64,000 nt of DNA from the NCBI GenBank assembly GCA_965231015.1, contig OZ246408.1, forward strand, positions 857,908 through 921,907, given 5' to 3'. The translations under genes were made by a program, and so were the position numbers. The notes beneath the pieces were generated by a model. The model made no database searches, was not told where the DNA came from, and was given only the letters and a program-made list of their open reading frames with translations. The DNA comes from an uncultured Gammaproteobacteria bacterium. Lineage in GTDB: Bacteria; Patescibacteriota; Patescibacteriia; UBA9934; CAZDDW01. Position 1 is the stretch's first letter, and each line of letters begins with the position of its first letter. Shown here piece after piece: positions 1 through 56,232 of this stretch.

Positions 1-644
1 TTATTGAATGGGAGAAAGAACGTTTTTAGCCCCTTCAACTCCGTTGTCATGTATATCAAATCCGTGTCTACAGCAAAATGAGCCAAGCATCGTTTGAACC
101 GTAGCAAGGGCTCTTTTGGATCTCGGTCAACTCGATATTGTTGCACGGCATTTTTAACGGTCTGACCGGTTAATTGATTTTTGAGTTCAACTGTAAAAAT
201 TGGCAGACCATTCAAAAACAAAACAATGTCAATAGAATTCTCATTCTGATCACTATAATGAACCTGACGCATAACACTAAAGATGTTTGCGTCATACAGT
301 CGCTGGCTTTCCGGATTCATACCGGAGTTTGGCTTGAAGTAGGCCAAGTCAATTTTTTGTCCATGATCGGAAAATCCGTTCCGCAACACATCCAAGGTTC
401 CACGTTCTCGAATCTCTTTATCTAAACGATTGAAAACTTTATCATTGATCTGGTCCCCGTGGATTTCCAGGAGGCGTCCATATTTTTCTGATTGTGTATT
501 TTCAATGAATTCTAAAACCAGTTCCGGATCCATACAGACATTCTTCATGTATGCACTCGCCGGCCGAGTTTGATACCCATTTTCCTCCGTGAGGAACTCC
601 TCAATAAATTCCTCAAACCCAATTTCTTTGATATTAGTAGTCAT
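1..644 (-). CDS. hsdR: Type I restriction enzyme R subunit (HsdR), N-terminal ~214 aa only; ORF runs open off the window start
   Basis: ATG at 644 (rc), reading frame open to position 1 with no stop; PD-(D/E)xK-like segment IDIVLFLNGLPIFTVELKN and HsdR-typical TFFLPFN motif; start overlaps stop of upstream ORF (ATGA-type coupling). Confidence 0.65.
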   Translation of the reverse strand, partial: MTTNIKEIGFEEFIEEFLTEENGYQTRPASAYMKNVCMDPELVLEFIENTQSEKYGRLLEIHGDQINDKVFNRLDKEIRERGTLDVLRNGFSDHGQKIDLAYFKPNSGMNPESQRLYDANIFSVMRQVHYSDQNENSIDIVLFLNGLPIFTVELKNQLTGQTVKNAVQQYRVDRDPKEPLLRFKRCLAHFAVDTDLIYMTTELKGLKTFFLPFN

Positions 645-646
645 AA

Positions 647-1363
647 TTATTTCTCATCCATCCAAGTAAAGTCTTGGTTTTGACATCTGATAGCTTTTTC
701 TGGACAATGAGCAGTTAATACTTCTAAGGATTGTTCTTCAAGTTTTTGTAGTTCACGATATTGTTTGTATTTACCTTCACCAATTCTAGTGTCTCCCACT
801 AACTCCTTTGGCATAATCGACAAATCGATCCATTTTGTCATAAGACTCAGAGCGATTAAGTCATAACGCAGTTGAGCTAATCGCTTCTTTAAAAATCGCT
901 CTTGTACTTCTTGGTTGTTGTGTTGCAAACCAAATTTATCATATTTTTCAATTTGTTCAATATCTAGCACAATTGTACTGATTTGGCTTTGCTCTTCAAT
1001 GGTATAAAATAAATCTAAATATTGACCACTTGCTAGAATGCGCTTTAAGTTTGGTGCGTTGTAAATTTTGCTTAGATATTTTGGAAAAGGTTTGAAGCCC
1101 TTTGTCGCTTCTTTGAGATCTGACATTACTTGTCCTAGATTAACAATATCTTCAAGGCTTGCAAAATATAGAGTTCTGATTTCAACTTTGATCACTTCTT
1201 TTAATCTGTGCCATTGTATCCGTTTTCGATTCCAGCTAATCCAATAAGTAACAACTGAGATAAATGCTGTGGCTGCAGCAATCCCAAAAGAAGCAATAGT
1301 CGCCCATTGTGTTACTAATTGAATTGTATCAACGGTTTCTTGGGCCATATTATTCCACAACAA
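647..1363 (-). CDS. hypothetical membrane-anchored protein (238 aa) embedded between hsdS and hsdR
   Basis: ORF with one predicted N-terminal TM helix (WATIASFGIAAATAFISVVTYWISW) then ~190-aa soluble domain; start overlaps hsdS 3' end by 14 nt, stop abuts hsdR start; no recognisable family. Confidence 0.55.
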   Translation of the reverse strand: MLWNNMAQETVDTIQLVTQWATIASFGIAAATAFISVVTYWISWNRKRIQWHRLKEVIKVEIRTLYFASLEDIVNLGQVMSDLKEATKGFKPFPKYLSKIYNAPNLKRILASGQYLDLFYTIEEQSQISTIVLDIEQIEKYDKFGLQHNNQEVQERFLKKRLAQLRYDLIALSLMTKWIDLSIMPKELVGDTRIGEGKYKQYRELQKLEEQSLEVLTAHCPEKAIRCQNQDFTWMDEK

Positions 1364-2708
1364 TCTTCCCAGTCACCGCGTGCGAAATCAGCGACGAGCG
1401 GTATTCTTGAATTAACCTGATCGACTTTTGGATTTTTTTGATAGCTCTATCAATCTCCAATGTTTTCTTATCTAAAAAATATGCAATGTTTTTTTGAATA
1501 GACGTACTGGGTACAGGTATTGATTCCGTAAAATATGATTTGACATCTAGATTCTGAATACCAGTTGTCTGCTTTATGAACTTTTTATTGACTCCTTTAA
1601 CGTACATAGCTCTATTGAGATATGTAAAGTACTTTGAGTCGACAGAATCATTTAATCGTATAGTTTCAATGAAATTTGAATTTACTGCGGTGTTGTTCAA
1701 ATCAAACTGGACAATTCTGCCAACTGGTGTCTTTTCTCCACCTCCAGACTTCTCAAGTAATAGATCACCAAGCTGCAGTTTTTTTGAGCTAAGATGATTC
1801 CTCGCTACATCTCGGAAAGTGTAACCCTCAGGCTTTAATCTAAGATTTGTATAAACAAAGTCAGCAACTCGGACACATAATGTTCCAGTTTCTTCAGTCG
1901 CTTCACCATCACCCCATGTTCCACCAAAGTGAGTGCTAATGAAATCCTTTTGCCTTTGGACATCCCACCCCTCTGGCATCTCGCCAATCCATTCAACACC
2001 CGAATCTTTCATCTTCACATTCGGATCCAGGCCTTTTGTAACAGCTTGCGTAATCAAAGCCGCGCGTTTTTCTTTCAGAAGCTCGATCTGCTTCTTTTTC
2101 TTTTTCTCCACCTCATCAATCACGGCCGTTTTTTCATCAAGAAAATCTGCAATGCGTTTTTGTTGATCTGCTGATGGAAGCAGAACGCCGAGTCGTTCAA
2201 AATCATGTCGTTTTACTTGAAGTGAATTTGGTCGAACCCCATAAAGTAGGCTGGTATATTTTTGAACATACTCATATGAACGTAATAAATAGTGAGCGAA
2301 ACGACTCTCGATCTTATTACTTAAATAGTAACTCTGATAGGCCGGGCTAACGTATCCGTCAAGGGCTGAAACTCCTAGTCCTTTAAAGTTCAACCACATA
2401 GTATTAACGACAAGTTGACCCTTATGAACAATGCGATAGTTACTATTATCTTCTGAGACTAATTGACCGTCATTTGTTGTCACATTCCTGGGCTCAACTC
2501 CTCGATACCCTGATACAGATAACGCAAGCTCAAAATCAGGGTGATCTTTAACGCGTTCATCACTTGCCCACATGACAAATTTTAATGGTTTAAAAATCCA
2601 GTCATTTGGAATATGCACAATCCATTCAACACCTGAATTTTTCATCTCCTTTTTGTCTCGTAATGTGTATTTCATATTTATTGCCACAAATTTACAAACC
2701 AATTCCAA
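1350..2708 (-). CDS. hsdS: Type I restriction-modification specificity subunit HsdS (two target-recognition domains)
   Basis: Duplicated TRD lead-in motifs GVEWIVHIPNDW / GVEWIGEMPEGW, conserved central and C-terminal coiled-coil repeats (LDEKTAVIDEVEKKKKKQIELLKEKRAALITQAVTGKL / YFLDKKTLEIDRAIKKIQKSIRLIQEYRSSLISHAVTGKI); alternative internal starts at 2675/2645 possible. Confidence 0.85.
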   Translation of the reverse strand: MELVCKFVAINMKYTLRDKKEMKNSGVEWIVHIPNDWIFKPLKFVMWASDERVKDHPDFELALSVSGYRGVEPRNVTTNDGQLVSEDNSNYRIVHKGQLVVNTMWLNFKGLGVSALDGYVSPAYQSYYLSNKIESRFAHYLLRSYEYVQKYTSLLYGVRPNSLQVKRHDFERLGVLLPSADQQKRIADFLDEKTAVIDEVEKKKKKQIELLKEKRAALITQAVTKGLDPNVKMKDSGVEWIGEMPEGWDVQRQKDFISTHFGGTWGDGEATEETGTLCVRVADFVYTNLRLKPEGYTFRDVARNHLSSKKLQLGDLLLEKSGGGEKTPVGRIVQFDLNNTAVNSNFIETIRLNDSVDSKYFTYLNRAMYVKGVNKKFIKQTTGIQNLDVKSYFTESIPVPSTSIQKNIAYFLDKKTLEIDRAIKKIQKSIRLIQEYRSSLISHAVTGKIVVE

Positions 2709-3070
2709 TCAAGACCGAAAAACGCCAGTAAACCAATGAGCAGGGCCAGGATAGCTAGAGCTGCTTGGAAATCATTTTTAACCCAACGCCAAAGACGATA
2801 TTTAATTTTGAGCTCACTTCTACCTGCATTTGTTATTCCAACGTAAATCCCTGGAATTCCGCCACCGCTTCTACCGTTCTGTTTAATTATGAAATTTTGT
2901 GACTCCAATGTATCACAGGCATGAGCGACACGGGATTTGAAATAGTCAACATGTTTTCTTACATCTTCTTTATACCCTCTATCAAGCAAGGCTTTTTTTA
3001 GATTAGAAACAGTAATCTTCATATCATCTCGTACTAACACCTTTAGAATGTCCTTGTGTAATTTTTCCAT
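2678..3070 (-). CDS. small protein (130 aa): N-terminal winged-helix-like region, C-terminal TM helix; embedded between hsdM and hsdS
   Basis: ORF begins 2 nt after hsdM stop and overlaps hsdS start by ~31 nt; C-terminal hydrophobic stretch AALAILALLIGLLAFFGL; no family recognised. Confidence 0.45.
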   Translation of the reverse strand: MEKLHKDILKVLVRDDMKITVSNLKKALLDRGYKEDVRKHVDYFKSRVAHACDTLESQNFIIKQNGRSGGGIPGIYVGITNAGRSELKIKYRLWRWVKNDFQAALAILALLIGLLAFFGLDWNWFVNLWQ

Positions 3071-3072
3071 AC

Positions 3073-5112
3073 CTACATCTGATCAATCAATGACTTAAGT
3101 TCTGATTCGACCTGCTCGATATCTTTCTGAATTTCATCCAGTGATCGTGGGGCTTCATACTTGTAGAAGAATCGTGTTACCGGGATTTCGTAGCCAACTT
3201 TTCCGACTTTATTATCCTTGTGATCCTTTTTACTTTCATCAATCCATGCATCAGCAACATAAGGTTTTACTTCTTCTTCAAAATAGTCGTTAACATCTTG
3301 ATTCAGTGGAACATTTTCCGTATCGCGTAAACTCGAATCAGCTTGCTGCTTGTCTTGGCTATCCAAAAAGACATCCGCTGTTTCATCATGCTCGGAAAGA
3401 GCATTAACGATTGCCTTTTTAAGCGGAGCGGGTAATTTGAGATCGTTATTTTTCCATATACCCTCAAGCAATTTTATGTATTCATTTCCATTCTTAAATA
3501 ACTCAGTGGACATCTCGCTAAGTGCTGAAATGATGCTGTCTTGAAGCTTAATTCCGGCTTCAATTTCTTCATTGCCTTTATCGCCTTTTTTCTTCGAAGT
3601 AGCCAGCTTTTGAAAAACCTGCTCCTCTTTTAGCGCTTCAACACGTTCTGGAGTTACCTGAAAATTGAGCCTTAGTGGGCGTTCGATTGTAATCTGACGG
3701 TATCCAAAACCTTCGTTGTTGAAGATTTTTGAGTATTCATTCTCTTCAAACTTTGAATATAGCTCAACAATCTTTTTTCTGTCTTCTTCGGTGATTTCAT
3801 TGCGTTTGTTGCCAAGACTTTTGCGCATCTTTTCAGACATGCCTCGAGCGTCAATGATTTGCACCTTGCCTTTGCGCTCGTCAGGCTTTCGGTTTGTTAT
3901 AAACCAGAGATAGGTTGGAATACCTGTATTGAAGAAAAGTTGATCTGGCAAGGCAATGATAGTCTCTAGCCAATCGTTCTCTAGAATCCAGCGTCGGATT
4001 TCACTTTCTCCGCTACCCGCATCTCCAGTGAAGAGTGGTGACCCGTTGAAGACAATGCCCAGACGCGATCCGCCTTCGTGCTCGGGTCGCATTTTTGAAA
4101 TGAGGTGTTGTAGGAATAACAACTGACCATCAGAAACCCGCGGTGTACCAGCTCCAAAACGACCGGCGTATCCACGTTCTTCTTCACGCTCGATTACTTG
4201 CTTGTCTTTTTTCCAATCTATACCAAACGGAGGGTTGGTGAGCATGTAGTCAAAGTCTTTACTGAAAAACTGATCATTAGAGAGGGTGGAGGCGATGGAA
4301 TGATCCTTTTCTCCGCCTTTGATATTATTCGGATCTTCACCCTTAATCAGCATATCCGCCTTACACATGGCATAGGTAACCGGGTTCAATTCTTGACCGT
4401 AAAGATAAATGTCAGCGTTACTTTTGATATCTTTCTTAATATGATCTTTGGCAACCGAGAGCATTCCACCAGTACCACAGGCACAGTCGTAAATGGTTTT
4501 AATCAGATGTTCTTTTTGAAGTTTTTTTTGGTCAGGGGCGAAGAGGACTTCAACCATGACTTTAATAACATCTCGTGGAGTGTAATGTTCTCCCGCGGTT
4601 TCGTTAGATTGTTCGGCAAACTTTCGAATAAGCTCTTCGAAGATTGAACCCATCTCATGATTGTCCACTCGGTCCGGGTGAAGATCAACCTTGTTGATGA
4701 TTTTGATAATTTCGTAAAGCAGATTACCACCTTCTAGGCGATCTAGCTGGCGGTCAAAGTCAAACTTCTCAATGATGTCAGTGATGTTTTCGCTAAACTT
4801 GCTCAGATAATCACGAAAGTTTTGTGCAATACCCGATGGATCCTCAAGTAAATTATTAAAATCATATTCTGAGATATTATAAAATCCAACTCCACTGGTT
4901 GCTTTCAGGATTGGGTCAAGATCATTAATTTCTCCACTGAGCTCGTTGTATTGCTCAAGTACAGCCTTCTTGGTTGGTGCAAGCAACAAATCCAAACGTC
5001 GAATCACGACCAAAGGGAGAATTACATCTTGGTACTCGTGCTGCTTCCAGCCACCTCGAAGAATGTCAGCGATATTCCAAATTAATTGTGCTTTTTCTTT
5101 GAAGTTGTTCAT
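3073..5112 (-). CDS. hsdM: Type I R-M N6-adenine DNA methyltransferase subunit HsdM (679 aa, with C-terminal extension)
   Basis: SAM-binding motif I DCACGTGGML and catalytic motif IV NPPFG; HsdM-N-like N-terminus; followed by hsdS and hsdR. Confidence 0.9.
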   Translation of the reverse strand: MNNFKEKAQLIWNIADILRGGWKQHEYQDVILPLVVIRRLDLLLAPTKKAVLEQYNELSGEINDLDPILKATSGVGFYNISEYDFNNLLEDPSGIAQNFRDYLSKFSENITDIIEKFDFDRQLDRLEGGNLLYEIIKIINKVDLHPDRVDNHEMGSIFEELIRKFAEQSNETAGEHYTPRDVIKVMVEVLFAPDQKKLQKEHLIKTIYDCACGTGGMLSVAKDHIKKDIKSNADIYLYGQELNPVTYAMCKADMLIKGEDPNNIKGGEKDHSIASTLSNDQFFSKDFDYMLTNPPFGIDWKKDKQVIEREEERGYAGRFGAGTPRVSDGQLLFLQHLISKMRPEHEGGSRLGIVFNGSPLFTGDAGSGESEIRRWILENDWLETIIALPDQLFFNTGIPTYLWFITNRKPDERKGKVQIIDARGMSEKMRKSLGNKRNEITEEDRKKIVELYSKFEENEYSKIFNNEGFGYRQITIERPLRLNFQVTPERVEALKEEQVFQKLATSKKKGDKGNEEIEAGIKLQDSIISALSEMSTELFKNGNEYIKLLEGIWKNNDLKLPAPLKKAIVNALSEHDETADVFLDSQDKQQADSSLRDTENVPLNQDVNDYFEEEVKPYVADAWIDESKKDHKDNKVGKVGYEIPVTRFFYKYEAPRSLDEIQKDIEQVESELKSLIDQM

Positions 5113-5963
5113 ATAAGTGGTTTGAATAGTTGTGTGTACTCATGGAGATGAAAAACTCTATGTCTATCTTTTCCGGTCACCTCTTTGAGAACGTTAAGTT
5201 TTACAAGCTCCTTAAACAATTCATTGATCGTCTGGTAAGTACTTTTCTCTTGATAGCTATTCTGAAGTTCCTTGATGGTAAACTGCGGCTTTTCCATCAT
5301 ACATGGTAACAGACCCTGAAAAAGATCTTTGCGTTGTTTGGCAAAGCCATTCGTCCGCTCCTTATATTTTCCATCTAGTGTCCTGATGTTGTGAAGTAGA
5401 CTGATGATTAATTCTGTCTGTTCCGCAACTTGTTGATTTGGGTCATGGGTGTTGTTCTGCATCCGTGAAAATATAAGAATGGGGGCCAAGAGAACACTTC
5501 GTTCGACAAGATACATGTTGGCAATCAAATCTGCCACTAGTTCATTGCCTTTATGAAATGGCGATATTTGTAAAAAATTCTGATATAACTGGATAGCGCT
5601 TTCGAAAATATTATCTTTCGAGTTGTGCTTGACTAACAACCTTTGCAGTGCCTTCTGTTTATCTTGGGAACGCCATTCACCCGGCTGGTAATTATATGTC
5701 TCTTTTTGCGAAAAGATCTGACGATGCAGTGAAGCGATGGCGTCTAAAAAATCTTCTCTGACCTTCGTCGGTTTAATAAAGGCAGTGATAAACCGCGATT
5801 CAGTCACTGGTAGCTGACCATGATTCTCATCAATTATTTGCTGTGTAAAAGCTAATTTAGCCAAAGAATAGCGCATTAATAGCGCAAATTGCGATGATTC
5901 TATCCATCCATTGATCTTCCCGATGTTGAGAAGTGCTAATTTTTCTGGCGCAATATGTTGCAT
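5109..5963 (-). CDS. Fic/Doc-family-like protein with degenerate active-site motif and C-terminal wHTH-like domain; first gene of the R-M operon
   Basis: Segment ISPFHKGNELVADLIANMYL aligns to the Fic HPFx[DE]GNGRxxR motif but with H->S, D->K, G->E, R->L substitutions; stop overlaps hsdM start (5109-5112). Confidence 0.45.
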   Translation of the reverse strand: MQHIAPEKLALLNIGKINGWIESSQFALLMRYSLAKLAFTQQIIDENHGQLPVTESRFITAFIKPTKVREDFLDAIASLHRQIFSQKETYNYQPGEWRSQDKQKALQRLLVKHNSKDNIFESAIQLYQNFLQISPFHKGNELVADLIANMYLVERSVLLAPILIFSRMQNNTHDPNQQVAEQTELIISLLHNIRTLDGKYKERTNGFAKQRKDLFQGLLPCMMEKPQFTIKELQNSYQEKSTYQTINELFKELVKLNVLKEVTGKDRHRVFHLHEYTQLFKPLI

Positions 5964-5977
5964 ATCTTATTCAGAGT

Positions 5978-6006
5978 TTGACAAAGATTACTGATTGTGA
6001 TAATAC
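5978..6006 (+). promoter_or_regulatory. sigma70-like promoter for the divergent DUF2130-like gene (TTGACA-N17-TAATAC), sharing its -10 hexamer region with the minus-strand promoter
   Basis: TTGACA at 5978-5983, 17-nt spacer, TAATAC at 6001-6006; overlaps the minus-strand -10 at 6000-6005. Confidence 0.45.
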
Positions 6007-6029
6007 CAAAAGGCTAATTAATTGTCAAG
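6000..6029 (-). promoter_or_regulatory. sigma70-like promoter for the Fic-hsdM-hsdS-hsdR operon (TTGACA-N17-TATTAT on minus strand)
   Basis: rc of 6024-6029 = TTGACA, 17-nt spacer, rc of 6000-6005 = TATTAT; ~28 nt upstream of Fic-like ATG at 5963. Confidence 0.5.
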
Positions 6030-6045
6030 TAAATACTCAAATAAT

Positions 6046-7263
6046 ATGACCGAACAAACTATAATTTGCCCTGAGTGTAGCGCAGAAATCCCCTTAAATA
6101 AAGCGCTTACAGGAAAAATTCATGCTGAGCTTCGCAAGGAAATGAACGCAGAGCTTCAGGACAAGAGGACTGAGCTTGCCCAAAAAGAAACACAATTTGC
6201 TAAACAGCAGGAGGATTTGCAAAAAACAATTGATGCCCGTGTAGCAAAGGAGCGAGCGGAAATTGCCAAGCAAGCGAAAGATGAGGCTACAAAAGTGCTT
6301 GATCTTCAACTCAAGGATCTCCAAAAAGCCAATGAAGAAAAGGGACAGGAGTTGAAAGCTATGAAGGAGGCCGAGTTAGAGCTTCGTAGGCAAAAACGTG
6401 AAATTGAAGCGCGAGAAAAAAACCTCCAGCTCGAGTTTGAACGCAAAATGGATACTGAACGAGAAAAAATTGCTGAAGATGTGAGAAAAGCTGCTGCAGA
6501 AGAGAGTCGGCTTAAGGTTGCAGAAAAGGACAAACAGATTGCCCAAATGAACAAAACGATTGTGGATCTAAAACGAAAAGGTGAACAAGGCTCCATGCAA
6601 ATCCAAGGTGACGTGCAAGAAGATGGCCTGAAGATTCAGCTGCAGAATATTTTCCCTATTGATACCATCGAGGATGTCCCGACTGGAATTAAAGGAGCTG
6701 ACTTGGTGCATCGCATACGAACCGACCTTGGTCAAGAAGCTGGTACGATTCTCTGGGAATCAAAAAATACTAGGGCATGGAATGGTGGCTGGGTGAAAAA
6801 ACTCAAGGATGACCAGGCGTCTGTTAAGGCTGATGCATGTATCTTAGTTTCTCAAGCATTACCTGATGGGATCGATGATTTTGGATATGTCGACGGAGTA
6901 TGGGTGTGCAAATATCGCTCAGCTGCGTCTTTGGCGTCTGTGCTACGCCACAGCGTTGTTGAAATCTCACAAGTTAAGCAGTCGTTAGTGGGTAAGGATC
7001 AAAAAATGGAGCTTCTTTATAACTATTTATCCGGAAGCGAATTCCGAAACCGTGTAGAAAACATCGTTTCTGCATTCACAGGCATGCAGTCGGATCTTGA
7101 AACCGAAAAGCGTTCCATACAGCGCACATGGAAGAAGCGTGAAAAAGAAATTGAACGTGTAATCACTAATACGTCTGGGATGTATGGAGACCTTCAAGGT
7201 CTCATTGGTGCTTCGCTTAAAACAATCCGGTCTCTCGAACTATCAAGTGGGGATGAAGATTAA
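6046..7263 (+). CDS. coiled-coil protein with N-terminal CxxC and C-terminal PD-(D/E)xK-like domain (DUF2130-like)
   Basis: ORF track start is TTG at 6022; first ATG at 6046 (MTEQTIICPECSAEIPL); ~180-aa K/E/Q-rich coiled coil; C-terminal GADLVHRI...ILWESKNT resembles D...ExK nuclease motif. Confidence 0.5.
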   Translation: MTEQTIICPECSAEIPLNKALTGKIHAELRKEMNAELQDKRTELAQKETQFAKQQEDLQKTIDARVAKERAEIAKQAKDEATKVLDLQLKDLQKANEEKGQELKAMKEAELELRRQKREIEAREKNLQLEFERKMDTEREKIAEDVRKAAAEESRLKVAEKDKQIAQMNKTIVDLKRKGEQGSMQIQGDVQEDGLKIQLQNIFPIDTIEDVPTGIKGADLVHRIRTDLGQEAGTILWESKNTRAWNGGWVKKLKDDQASVKADACILVSQALPDGIDDFGYVDGVWVCKYRSAASLASVLRHSVVEISQVKQSLVGKDQKMELLYNYLSGSEFRNRVENIVSAFTGMQSDLETEKRSIQRTWKKREKEIERVITNTSGMYGDLQGLIGASLKTIRSLELSSGDED

Positions 7264-7358: not shown

Positions 7359-7862
7359 ATGATGGAGCAAGCTGAACAACTGGTGCGCGAGCGGATTACG
7401 GGCACGCGCAAAGGCATGGACAAGCCGGCCTGCACGCATTCGTTCAATGTGCGGGATATTCTGGCGAGGCACGGGTTTTCCGGTGAGGTGCAACTGGCCG
7501 GGCTGTTGCACGATGTGATCGAGGACGGGGGCGTGAGTTTGGACGAGCTAACAGCGCTCGGGTTTGGCGATCGGGTGGTAGAGCTCGTTAATCTGGCTTC
7601 GCACGACCTCGCGGTCGAAGGCTCGTACGAGCGCTGGGTCAAAATGATCGCGCGGCTGATTGACGCGACTGACGCCGAGGCTTGGGCCATCAAGCTCGCT
7701 GACATCCGCGACAACCTGCGCGACAGCCATGCTATGCCGAACAAAGAACAACAACTCTTGCTCCGCGAAGTCAAGGTCCGGCTAATGCTGGAGCTAACTA
7801 AAAATTTCAATGACCTGTCCGGTCTGCGCCAAGAACTGGCAAACGAGCTTAAGGCAATCTAG
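7359..7862 (+). CDS. small HD-domain hydrolase of RelA/SpoT type (small alarmone hydrolase-like)
   Basis: HSFNV...LAGLLHDVIEDGGVSLDELTALGFGDRVVELVNLASHD matches the SpoT/RelA HD hydrolase core (H...LLHDvIED...FG..V..LV). Confidence 0.55.
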   Translation: MMEQAEQLVRERITGTRKGMDKPACTHSFNVRDILARHGFSGEVQLAGLLHDVIEDGGVSLDELTALGFGDRVVELVNLASHDLAVEGSYERWVKMIARLIDATDAEAWAIKLADIRDNLRDSHAMPNKEQQLLLREVKVRLMLELTKNFNDLSGLRQELANELKAI

Positions 7863-56128: not shown

Positions 56129-56232
56129 TGGTGAGGCCAGATGGAATCGAACCATCGACCGCTGGGGCTCCTCTGGACCATCTAGAACTTGACGACCCAT
56201 ACCCAGTGCTCTACCAGCTGAGCTATAGCCTC
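56129..56232 (-). tRNA. tRNA gene (104 nt, CCA-encoded) with ~28-nt insertion/intron-like segment in the anticodon-loop region; isotype undetermined
   Basis: acceptor GAGGCUA/UGGCCUC, U8A9, D-arm GCUC-AGCUGGUA-GAGC, anticodon stem CUGGG/CCCAG separated by 35 nt instead of 7, variable CGGUC, T-arm GAUGG-UUCGAUU-CCAUC, discriminator A + CCA. Confidence 0.55.

Follow-up and report, generated by a model that had tools for sequence, protein, structure and literature searches.

Here we describe a small gene lodged inside a type I restriction-modification (R-M) operon within a stretch of 64,000 nucleotides (contig OZ246408.1 of assembly GCA_965231015.1, positions 857,908 to 921,907), hereafter the window. 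The gene lies on the minus strand at 647..1348, between hsdS and hsdR, and its product is predicted to be a single-pass protein whose transmembrane (TM) helix runs straight into a cytoplasmic four-helix bundle. The protein represents a family not annotated before, for which a structure is predicted with confidence and which has no enzymatic domain; this family, its architecture and its recurrence beside several types of R-M system are in none of the libraries searched. The explanation we tentatively favour is that the protein is a self-contained, membrane-acting defence passenger of the operon, and not an R-M subunit or a tether.

Read from its ATG at 1348 to its TAA stop at 649-647, the gene encodes 233 amino acids (aa). 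An alternative TTG start at 1363 gives the 238 aa of the original prediction, which was made from the DNA alone; two independent gene calls on contigs identical to the window chose the ATG. When the sequence is read directly, the hsdS stop TAA (1352-1350) is followed by a 1-nucleotide (nt) spacer and then this ATG, and the gene's own stop is followed by a 2-nt spacer and then the hsdR ATG at 644. The 14-nt overlap with hsdS described originally holds for the TTG start and becomes a 1-nt gap from the ATG, the stop abuts hsdR to within its 2-nt spacer, and with junctions of this size the proposed tight coupling to both neighbours stands. The neighbours were correctly named, hsdS and hsdR having Pfam matches to Methylase_S and HSDR_N, and the slot is indeed prrC-like, in that the gene holds the position of prrC in the EcoprrI locus. 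The operon consists of six co-directional minus-strand genes, in the order a Fic-like gene, hsdM, an orphan open reading frame (ORF) that we call orf130, hsdS, the embedded gene and hsdR, with all junctions between -4 and +2 nt.

This is a real gene, because its stop-free length is unlikely (by our own arithmetic a run of 238 codons at ~36% GC has a chance probability of ~3e-8), because it has 12 remote homologues, and because AlphaFold2 gains confidence from the family: the pLDDT (predicted local distance difference test) score rises from 35 with the single sequence to 86.5 with the 13-sequence family alignment, at a predicted template modelling (pTM) score of 0.78. That it is instead a non-functional chance ORF or a decayed remnant has, in our judgement, a negligible probability. 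Such a view could draw on a word-seeded search of a 5.8-billion-protein collection, which returned only the protein itself in one exact copy, and on two oddities of this copy, namely a 7-residue insertion of small residues in the TM helix (residues 19-25, about two turns) without counterpart in the relatives, and a degenerate form of the C-terminal tail P-x-Q-[YF]-F-G that most members carry. It is opposed by the motifs conserved among the homologues, the confident family-based model, the exact filling of the intergenic space by the ORF and the occurrence of the identical sequence on independently assembled contigs.

The homologues were found by running HMMER exhaustively over 1.84 billion cluster representatives; the 12 relatives recovered are 208-255 aa long and have E-values of 1e-28 to 1e-4, and with the window protein the family numbers 13 clusters at 50% identity. 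Its members share the motifs T-Y-W, E-x-R-T, D-I, L-R161 and D-L-S-I-M-P-K. The residues W36, E56, R58, R161, L167 and P180 are invariant, and no His is. Searching the protein collection with the family profile instead of the single sequence gave 3 proteins only. A hand-made degenerate DNA pattern, which recovered 7 of the 10 known members, had two matches in metagenome contigs, one of them a new partial member (L016), and none in genome contigs (GTDB species representatives) or in viral contigs, while tblastn against phages and plasmids found no match. In the profile libraries Pfam, PADLOC, NCBIfam and PHROGs the protein matched no model, a PDB sequence-profile search was equally negative, and scanning the 13 members singly against Pfam and PADLOC produced only scattered weak matches (SPC12, Phage_holin_2_3, HBM and a 2TM effector). 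The description of the cytoplasmic domain as having no recognisable motifs is thus accurate as regards the four libraries, though family-specific motifs exist. A concern that the protein might prove to be a housekeeping membrane protein found no echo in profile, PDB or fold searches.

In the AlphaFold2 model a single unbroken helix spans residues 2-83 and comprises both the TM segment and a stalk; the remaining helices cover residues 99-113, 117-139, 146-170 and 191-214. The TM helix (1232..1318, minus strand; residues ~11-39, ending in T34-Y35-W36) was delimited from hydropathy, flanking charges and the alignment. Its Kyte-Doolittle mean over 19 residues is 1.8, and every other segment stays at or below 1.3; in each family member, likewise, just one segment is hydrophobic, and the second-best 19-residue window reaches at most 1.26. 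The 15 residues that follow the segment are net positive in 12 of the 13 members, and this positive C-terminal flank places the bundle in the cytoplasm, with an N-out, C-in topology. Hydropathy and flanking charge therefore back the original proposal of one N-terminal TM helix followed by a cytoplasmic domain, and an extracytoplasmic sensor is rejected, since the charges, compared over all members, place the bundle on the cytoplasmic side. The cytoplasmic four-helix-bundle domain (707..1216, minus strand; residues ~45-214) is formed by the stalk as helix 1 and by the helices at 99-139, 146-170 and 191-214. Two of the family motifs map to it on the same strand: E56-x-R58-T59 (1172..1183), made of invariant or near-invariant columns on the stalk helix with D67-I68 eight residues on, and D175-L-S-I-M-P180-K181 (806..826), which the alignment and regional conservation identify as a conserved loop after helix 4.

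The TM segment is itself well conserved. Its mean top-residue frequency is 0.53, compared with 0.39-0.43 for helices 2-3 and helix 5, and its conservation matches that of the best cytoplasmic regions. Small residues line one side of the helix in the pattern A-x3-S/T-x3-A-x2-T-Y-W, a face that may well be a helix-packing surface and not part of a passive anchor. Fold searches with the model found generic helical bundles only and no enzyme fold; Foldseek returned no significant match, the bundle resemblances lying at 3-18% sequence identity, and a comparison with viral structures found no match.

Several known identities were considered and rejected. The protein is not a canonical HEPN protein, lacking both the R-x(4-6)-H motif and a conserved His, and no anticodon-nuclease domain was found in it, since the catalytic Arg/His set of that domain needs a His and none is invariant in the family. 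A SLATT or 2TM effector is contradicted by the single hydrophobic segment of every member, and the PADLOC 2TM model was matched by just one of the 13, at E 0.011. It is no fragment of HsdS, HsdM or HsdR, having no such Pfam match; hsdS ends in its usual C-terminal helix and hsdR has a full HSDR_N domain. For the S23-IVP/Avd-like bundles (PF05635, TIGR02436) the protein gave no match at E<=1 and no member gave one at E<=5. Phage_holin_2_3 was weakly matched by two of the 13 members (best E 0.0046), and a holin was rejected on the length of 233 aa, against under ~150 aa for holins, and on the absence of lysis genes nearby.

Genomic contexts were retrieved for 12 members, the new partial one included, and 9 were informative. 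R-M genes adjoin or surround the family gene in five of these nine (type I twice, type II-like, type IIG-like, and type II with the cyclic-oligonucleotide-based antiphage signalling system CBASS). Besides the window member between type I hsdS and hsdR, P0009 (L012) is the first gene after a non-coding stretch and precedes a type I hsdS (PADLOC 3e-53) by 13 nt. P0007 (L014) sits within an operon, joined by overlapping or 7-nt junctions, that runs from a type II-like N6 methyltransferase (MTase_II) through a 353-aa gene and P0007 to a 285-aa gene. P0003 (L007) lies upstream of, and co-directional with, a 287-aa gene, an MTase_II gene (2e-115) and the N-terminus of a type IIG restriction endonuclease-methyltransferase (2e-88). 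P0008 (L009) is found beside a helix-turn-helix gene, a putative restriction endonuclease and a C5-methylase; the CBASS genes for CD-NTase and Cap15 lie as a pair at a distance of 3 kb. Other contexts are not R-M loci. P0002 neighbours dnaG, P0010 is upstream of SppA, and P0011 is the first gene of its contig, with genes for DUF817, VanY and Mur ligase following; the region of P0005 contains DUF3800 and an insertion sequence, and P0006 (L101) comes after a VWA-containing cluster. The other contigs were too short to be informative. The suggested check for co-occurrence with type I hsdR has a mixed outcome: type I genes adjoin the members of the window and of L012, and other members lie beside other R-M types or housekeeping genes. 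Taking an assumed, unmeasured background in which ~10% of genes lie within three genes of an R-M gene, the binomial probability of five R-M contexts in nine is ~1e-3, a figure that is indicative only.

These contexts bear directly on a second explanation, to which we give an appreciable minority chance: that the family consists of lineage-restricted membrane proteins without a defence role, for example in the envelope or in regulation, and that the gene is hitch-hiking, its embedding an accident of compact genomes. The members next to dnaG, SppA, DUF817 with VanY and Mur ligase, and the VWA cluster are what such an explanation would lead one to expect, as are the tiny size of the family, the want of a match in the defence library and a generic bundle fold that also serves sensors and scaffolds. 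The five R-M loci among nine contexts speak against it, and so does the intimacy of the arrangement, with the window, L014 and L012 members lying 1-13 nt from, or overlapping, R-M genes or genes of R-M operons. A random membrane gene between hsdS and hsdR would moreover risk polar effects on hsdR, and housekeeping genes are rarely embedded in defence operons according to a survey of embedding (10.1101/2024.01.29.577857).

An all-versus-all ORF comparison of 11 family loci revealed no shared protein beyond the family itself, save a weak Fic-Fic match; even the 285-aa gene after P0007 and the 287-aa gene after P0003 are unrelated. By this comparison the family has no obligate partner, and any activity must then reside in the single polypeptide. 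The same result weakens the membrane tether put forward in the original prediction. In the form considered here, the bundle would bind the R-M enzyme or its DNA substrate and hold restriction at the cytoplasmic face of the membrane, perhaps together with orf130. The translational coupling of the gene between hsdS and hsdR is in keeping with a tether, as are the second orphan with a hydrophobic C-terminus between hsdM and hsdS, the natural fit of a binding role to a protein without a catalytic fold, the association specifically with R-M genes in five of nine contexts, and a host of the Candidate Phyla Radiation (CPR) with ComEC in the window; DNA uptake is thought to be important for CPR bacteria. 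Yet the partner R-M systems differ in type (I, II-like and IIG-like) and have no homologous subunit in common, several members have no R-M gene nearby and some have housekeeping neighbours, type I enzymes of related operons manage without a gene of this kind, orf130 has a homologue in no other family locus, and HsdR and HsdS are complete, with no domain missing. We regard a tether as unlikely. A broader variant, in which the protein would be a general R-M companion of ultra-small low-GC bacteria, a membrane-anchored bundle serving any type of restriction enzyme at the site of DNA entry, strikes us as rather unlikely too; it may hold or slow incoming DNA at the inner face of the membrane or recruit restriction there, and orf130 might be a second component. 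If that were true, restriction in CPR cells would be a membrane-localised process.

How the slot is filled in related systems was examined in a plasmid collection, where the closest HsdR relatives have ~44% identity. On Bacillus thuringiensis and Hymenobacter plasmids hsdS directly abuts hsdR and the slot is empty. The Meiothermus taiwanensis plasmid pMtWR-220 (L098, NZ_CP021131.1 49796-66648) carries hsdM, DUF262, hsdS, DUF4433, macro, AAA, DUF4276 and hsdR, a clear example of stacked cargo in which both inter-subunit slots are filled by unrelated cassettes of kinds usually linked to defence. Because relatives have the slot either empty or occupied by unrelated cassettes, the hsdS/hsdR junction can be regarded as a variable cargo site, and to judge from these sequences the embedded gene is not a conserved component of its type I lineage. 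The question of conservation therefore has a divided answer: the ORF is conserved as a family, with its 12 relatives, and this conservation does not extend to homologous type I loci.

The variable slot also counts against another alternative, that the protein regulates the R-M system itself, for example by sequestering or delaying HsdR to spare the chromosome during establishment or restriction alleviation. Its position immediately upstream of hsdR, with the 2-nt spacer, and its non-enzymatic binding fold would suit such a role, and control of HsdR is a known need of type I systems, as in ClpXP-dependent restriction alleviation (PMC4231737). Family members, on the other hand, occur with R-M types that have no HsdR and also alone, and close type I relatives do without the gene. 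We know of no precedent for a membrane-anchored controller, which we count against this possibility, and overall we hold it to be very unlikely.

Base composition points in the same direction as the slot comparison. The R-M island has a GC content of ~36-41%, compared with ~46% in the rest of the window, and the GC content at third codon positions (GC3) is 27.5% in the embedded gene, 32% in orf130, 34.5% in hsdS, 41% in hsdM, 41% in the Fic-like gene and 43% in hsdR. Given the low GC3 of the embedded gene, orf130 and hsdS, the exchangeable parts of the operon look compositionally younger or foreign, which suggests that hsdS and the two orphan genes may have been swapped in from a lower-GC source.

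Starting from the observed gene, operon position, topology, fold class, family and R-M-rich neighbourhoods, we infer a defence role, with infection sensing and a membrane mechanism. On the reading that we prefer, a defence passenger acting at the membrane, an accessory gene would have been inserted as cargo into the hsdS/hsdR slot and be co-expressed with the type I operon. Its product would expose a short N-terminus outside the cell, cross the membrane by a TM helix with a small-residue face and a T-Y-W aromatic belt, and join this helix rigidly to the bundle. It might provide a second-line, membrane-level anti-phage function, in which the cytoplasmic bundle would sense an infection cue and the TM helix would then alter its packing, with its own copies or with another membrane protein. 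The outcome could be membrane permeabilisation (abortive infection) or blocked DNA entry (exclusion). Since the family lacks a conserved partner and an enzymatic fold, and since its conserved TM helix continues rigidly into the bundle, the most economical scheme is a protein that is at once sensor and effector, and an independent embedded passenger fits the diversity of R-M types, the solitary copies and the lack of a shared partner better than a tether does. The abortive-infection-type effector of the original prediction is one possible form of such a protein, the argument for it being guilt by association.

The passenger signature, that is, the low GC3 of the gene (27.5%, against 41-43% for hsdM, hsdR and the Fic-like gene) together with the empty or variable slot in relatives, supports this explanation, as do the conservation and small-residue face of the TM helix, which would be unusual for a passive anchor. 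Further support comes from the tight packing of the six genes, with the one strong promoter match before the first, from the recurrence of R-M genes in five of nine contexts, and from a generic bundle fold that matches no enzyme. There is also precedent for the arrangement. A type IC locus harbours PrrC (PMC12707154), and TgvAB is encoded within a type I cluster of V. cholerae (PMC11411939). According to the 'guilt-by-embedding' survey, type I R-M systems often hold embedded genes, most of these appear defence-related while more than 50% lack an assigned function, and one embedded case is enough to merit follow-up (10.1101/2024.01.29.577857).

A number of observations weigh against a defence passenger. 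Most known membrane-acting defence effectors have at least two TM helices, and the window protein, unlike them, has one and no hidden hydrophobic hairpin. Neither this protein nor, consistently, the 13 members matched a model in PADLOC-DB 2.0.0, the PDC models of embedded candidates included. The family was not found in the phage, plasmid and viral collections, and so there is no direct sign of mobility. Four members adjoin housekeeping or unassigned genes (dnaG, SppA, DUF817 and the VWA cluster), the sample is small, with 13 clusters and several contigs below 2 kb, and the prevalence of R-M systems in the variable regions of small, low-GC host genomes may inflate the association.

The remaining genes of the operon have recognisable features. 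hsdR begins at the ATG at 644 and runs past the window edge, so that its N-terminal 214 codons lie at 1..644 on the minus strand (Pfam HSDR_N 1e-18); on the identical contig L001 its full product has 983 aa with ResIII, SWI2_SNF2 and T1R_D3 domains, and its best PDB relative is EcoR124I HsdR (3e-14). hsdS (1350..2675, minus strand; Pfam Methylase_S) is called at 441 aa from the ATG at 2675, the mechanical ORF reaching to a TTG at 2708. It contains a 50-nt direct repeat (1965-2014 and 2598-2647, 78% identity, 633 nt apart), which corresponds to the conserved region normally present in two copies around the two target-recognition domains and has no connection with the insertion; a repeat check found no repeats flanking the embedded gene, and no RNA family was found in its region. 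orf130 (2678..3070, minus strand; 130 aa) is separated by 2 nt from hsdM and by 2 nt from hsdS, and its product ends in a hydrophobic segment, FQAALAILALLIGLLAFFGL. Pfam, PADLOC, NCBIfam and PHROGs gave no family match for it, and a homologue search returned orf130 alone; the operon thus encodes two orphan putative membrane proteins. hsdM (3073..5112, minus strand) encodes 679 aa with Pfam HsdM_N and N6_Mtase matches (N6_Mtase 2e-66). Its ATG is overlapped (ATGA) by the stop of the first gene of the operon, the Fic-like gene (5109..5963, minus strand; 284 aa; Pfam Fic 9e-6, PADLOC SoFic 1.4e-14). The active-site region of the Fic-like protein reads SPFHKGNELVAD, compared with the canonical HPFx(D/E)GNGRxxR, and the catalytic His and both Arg appear to have been lost. 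Just upstream, at 6000..6028 on the minus strand, is a sigma-70-like promoter match (TTGACA-17-TATTAT, 11/12, with an extended -10 TG). It is the sole strong match in the region, stands before the first gene of the operon and is a promoter by consensus match only.

Divergent from the operon, a DUF2130 protein with a long coiled-coil N-terminus (6022-7263, plus strand; Pfam 8e-68) is followed by a small protein with an HD_4/RelA-SpoT-like hydrolase domain (7359-7862, plus strand). From ~7500 to ~10500 the GC content rises to 51-59%, above that of the surroundings, with only small ORFs (55-149 aa in the L001 gene calls), and a tRNA match at 56132-56232 (minus strand) is unusually long at 101 nt and could have a long variable arm or an insertion. 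The window also encodes the elongation factor EF-G, SecY, the leucyl-tRNA synthetase LeuRS, the initiation factor IF-2 and ComEC. The closest relative of its EF-G is from a Candidatus Falkowbacteria metagenome-assembled genome (77% identity), the next matches being mostly from Patescibacteria, and the host is a bacterium of the Patescibacteria (CPR).

Two of the other family loci have surroundings of their own. The island around P0007 (L014 4721-12388) also holds genes for proteins of 360 aa, 155 aa (AbiV/HEPN-like) and 578 aa (weakly matching the TIR-like ThsB), and a Fic gene (L014 13208-14215) and a PD-(D/E)XK gene lie downstream. It looks like an uncharacterised defence island in which most proteins have no family; comparison of the L014 neighbours with PDB and NCBIfam gave no match. 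In L101 (1-7936), P0006 ends a run of six co-directional large genes without defence-library matches, among them one for a 677-aa VWA_4 protein and one for a protein of 255 aa that weakly matches 23S_rRNA_IVP (a four-helix bundle) and a Zn-ribbon. The GC content of that contig is 57%, compared with 29-44% in the other family loci.

A gene of this kind embedded in a type I R-M operon is in itself a known and common thing. R-M-embedded genes have repeatedly proved to hold new immune functions, as PrrC, TgvAB and the HEC and PDC candidates illustrate. To our knowledge, few defence systems beyond R-M are recognised in Patescibacteria, and almost nothing there has been tried experimentally. If active, the protein would add a single-gene, membrane-level layer to restriction and offer a handle on phage defence in CPR bacteria; if inactive, it would be one more orphan membrane protein.

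Compared with known systems, the arrangement is most reminiscent of PrrC and RloC, with a single extra gene between hsdS and hsdR, the M-S-R order, co-expression and the idea of a back-up to restriction (PMC12707154). PrrC, however, is soluble and unites an ABC-type ATPase with a tRNA nuclease domain, whereas the window protein is a single-pass membrane helical bundle with relatives that also occur outside type I loci; membership of the PrrC/RloC group is rejected, there being no ATPase family match in Pfam, NCBIfam or PADLOC and no P-loop fold in the all-helical model. With the guilt-by-embedding candidates (TgvAB and the HEC and PDC families of Payne et al. 2024) it shares the interruption of an R-M operon, the character of variable slot cargo and the existence of non-embedded homologues. 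Like them it lies inside a multi-gene R-M operon, and L012, L014 and L007 supply further embedded or adjacent cases; it differs from the HEC and PDC candidates in matching no PADLOC 2.0 model and in belonging to a far rarer family (13 clusters). The superinfection-exclusion proteins Sie and Imm are likewise small and membrane-anchored and could act at DNA entry without enzyme activity, but there is no homology or viral structural match, and Sie proteins are as a rule encoded by prophages, while searches of viral collections did not find this family. Generic four-helix bundles (FAT, PsbQ, the 4HB chemoreceptor sensors and de novo bundles) differ in sequence, at 3-18% identity, and the 4HB domains of chemoreceptors sit outside the cytoplasm with a TM helix on either side, in contrast to a bundle that is cytoplasmic and C-terminal to a single one. 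The membrane effectors of abortive infection (CBASS Cap14 and Cap15, the Pycsar and retron 2TM effectors, SLATT, RexB and AbiZ) are also small membrane proteins of defence loci without an enzymatic domain, and the window protein could likewise act by disturbing the membrane. Those effectors have at least two TM helices or a beta-barrel sensor and mostly depend on a separate signal-producing partner, whereas the protein described here combines one TM helix with a four-helix bundle and has no conserved partner.

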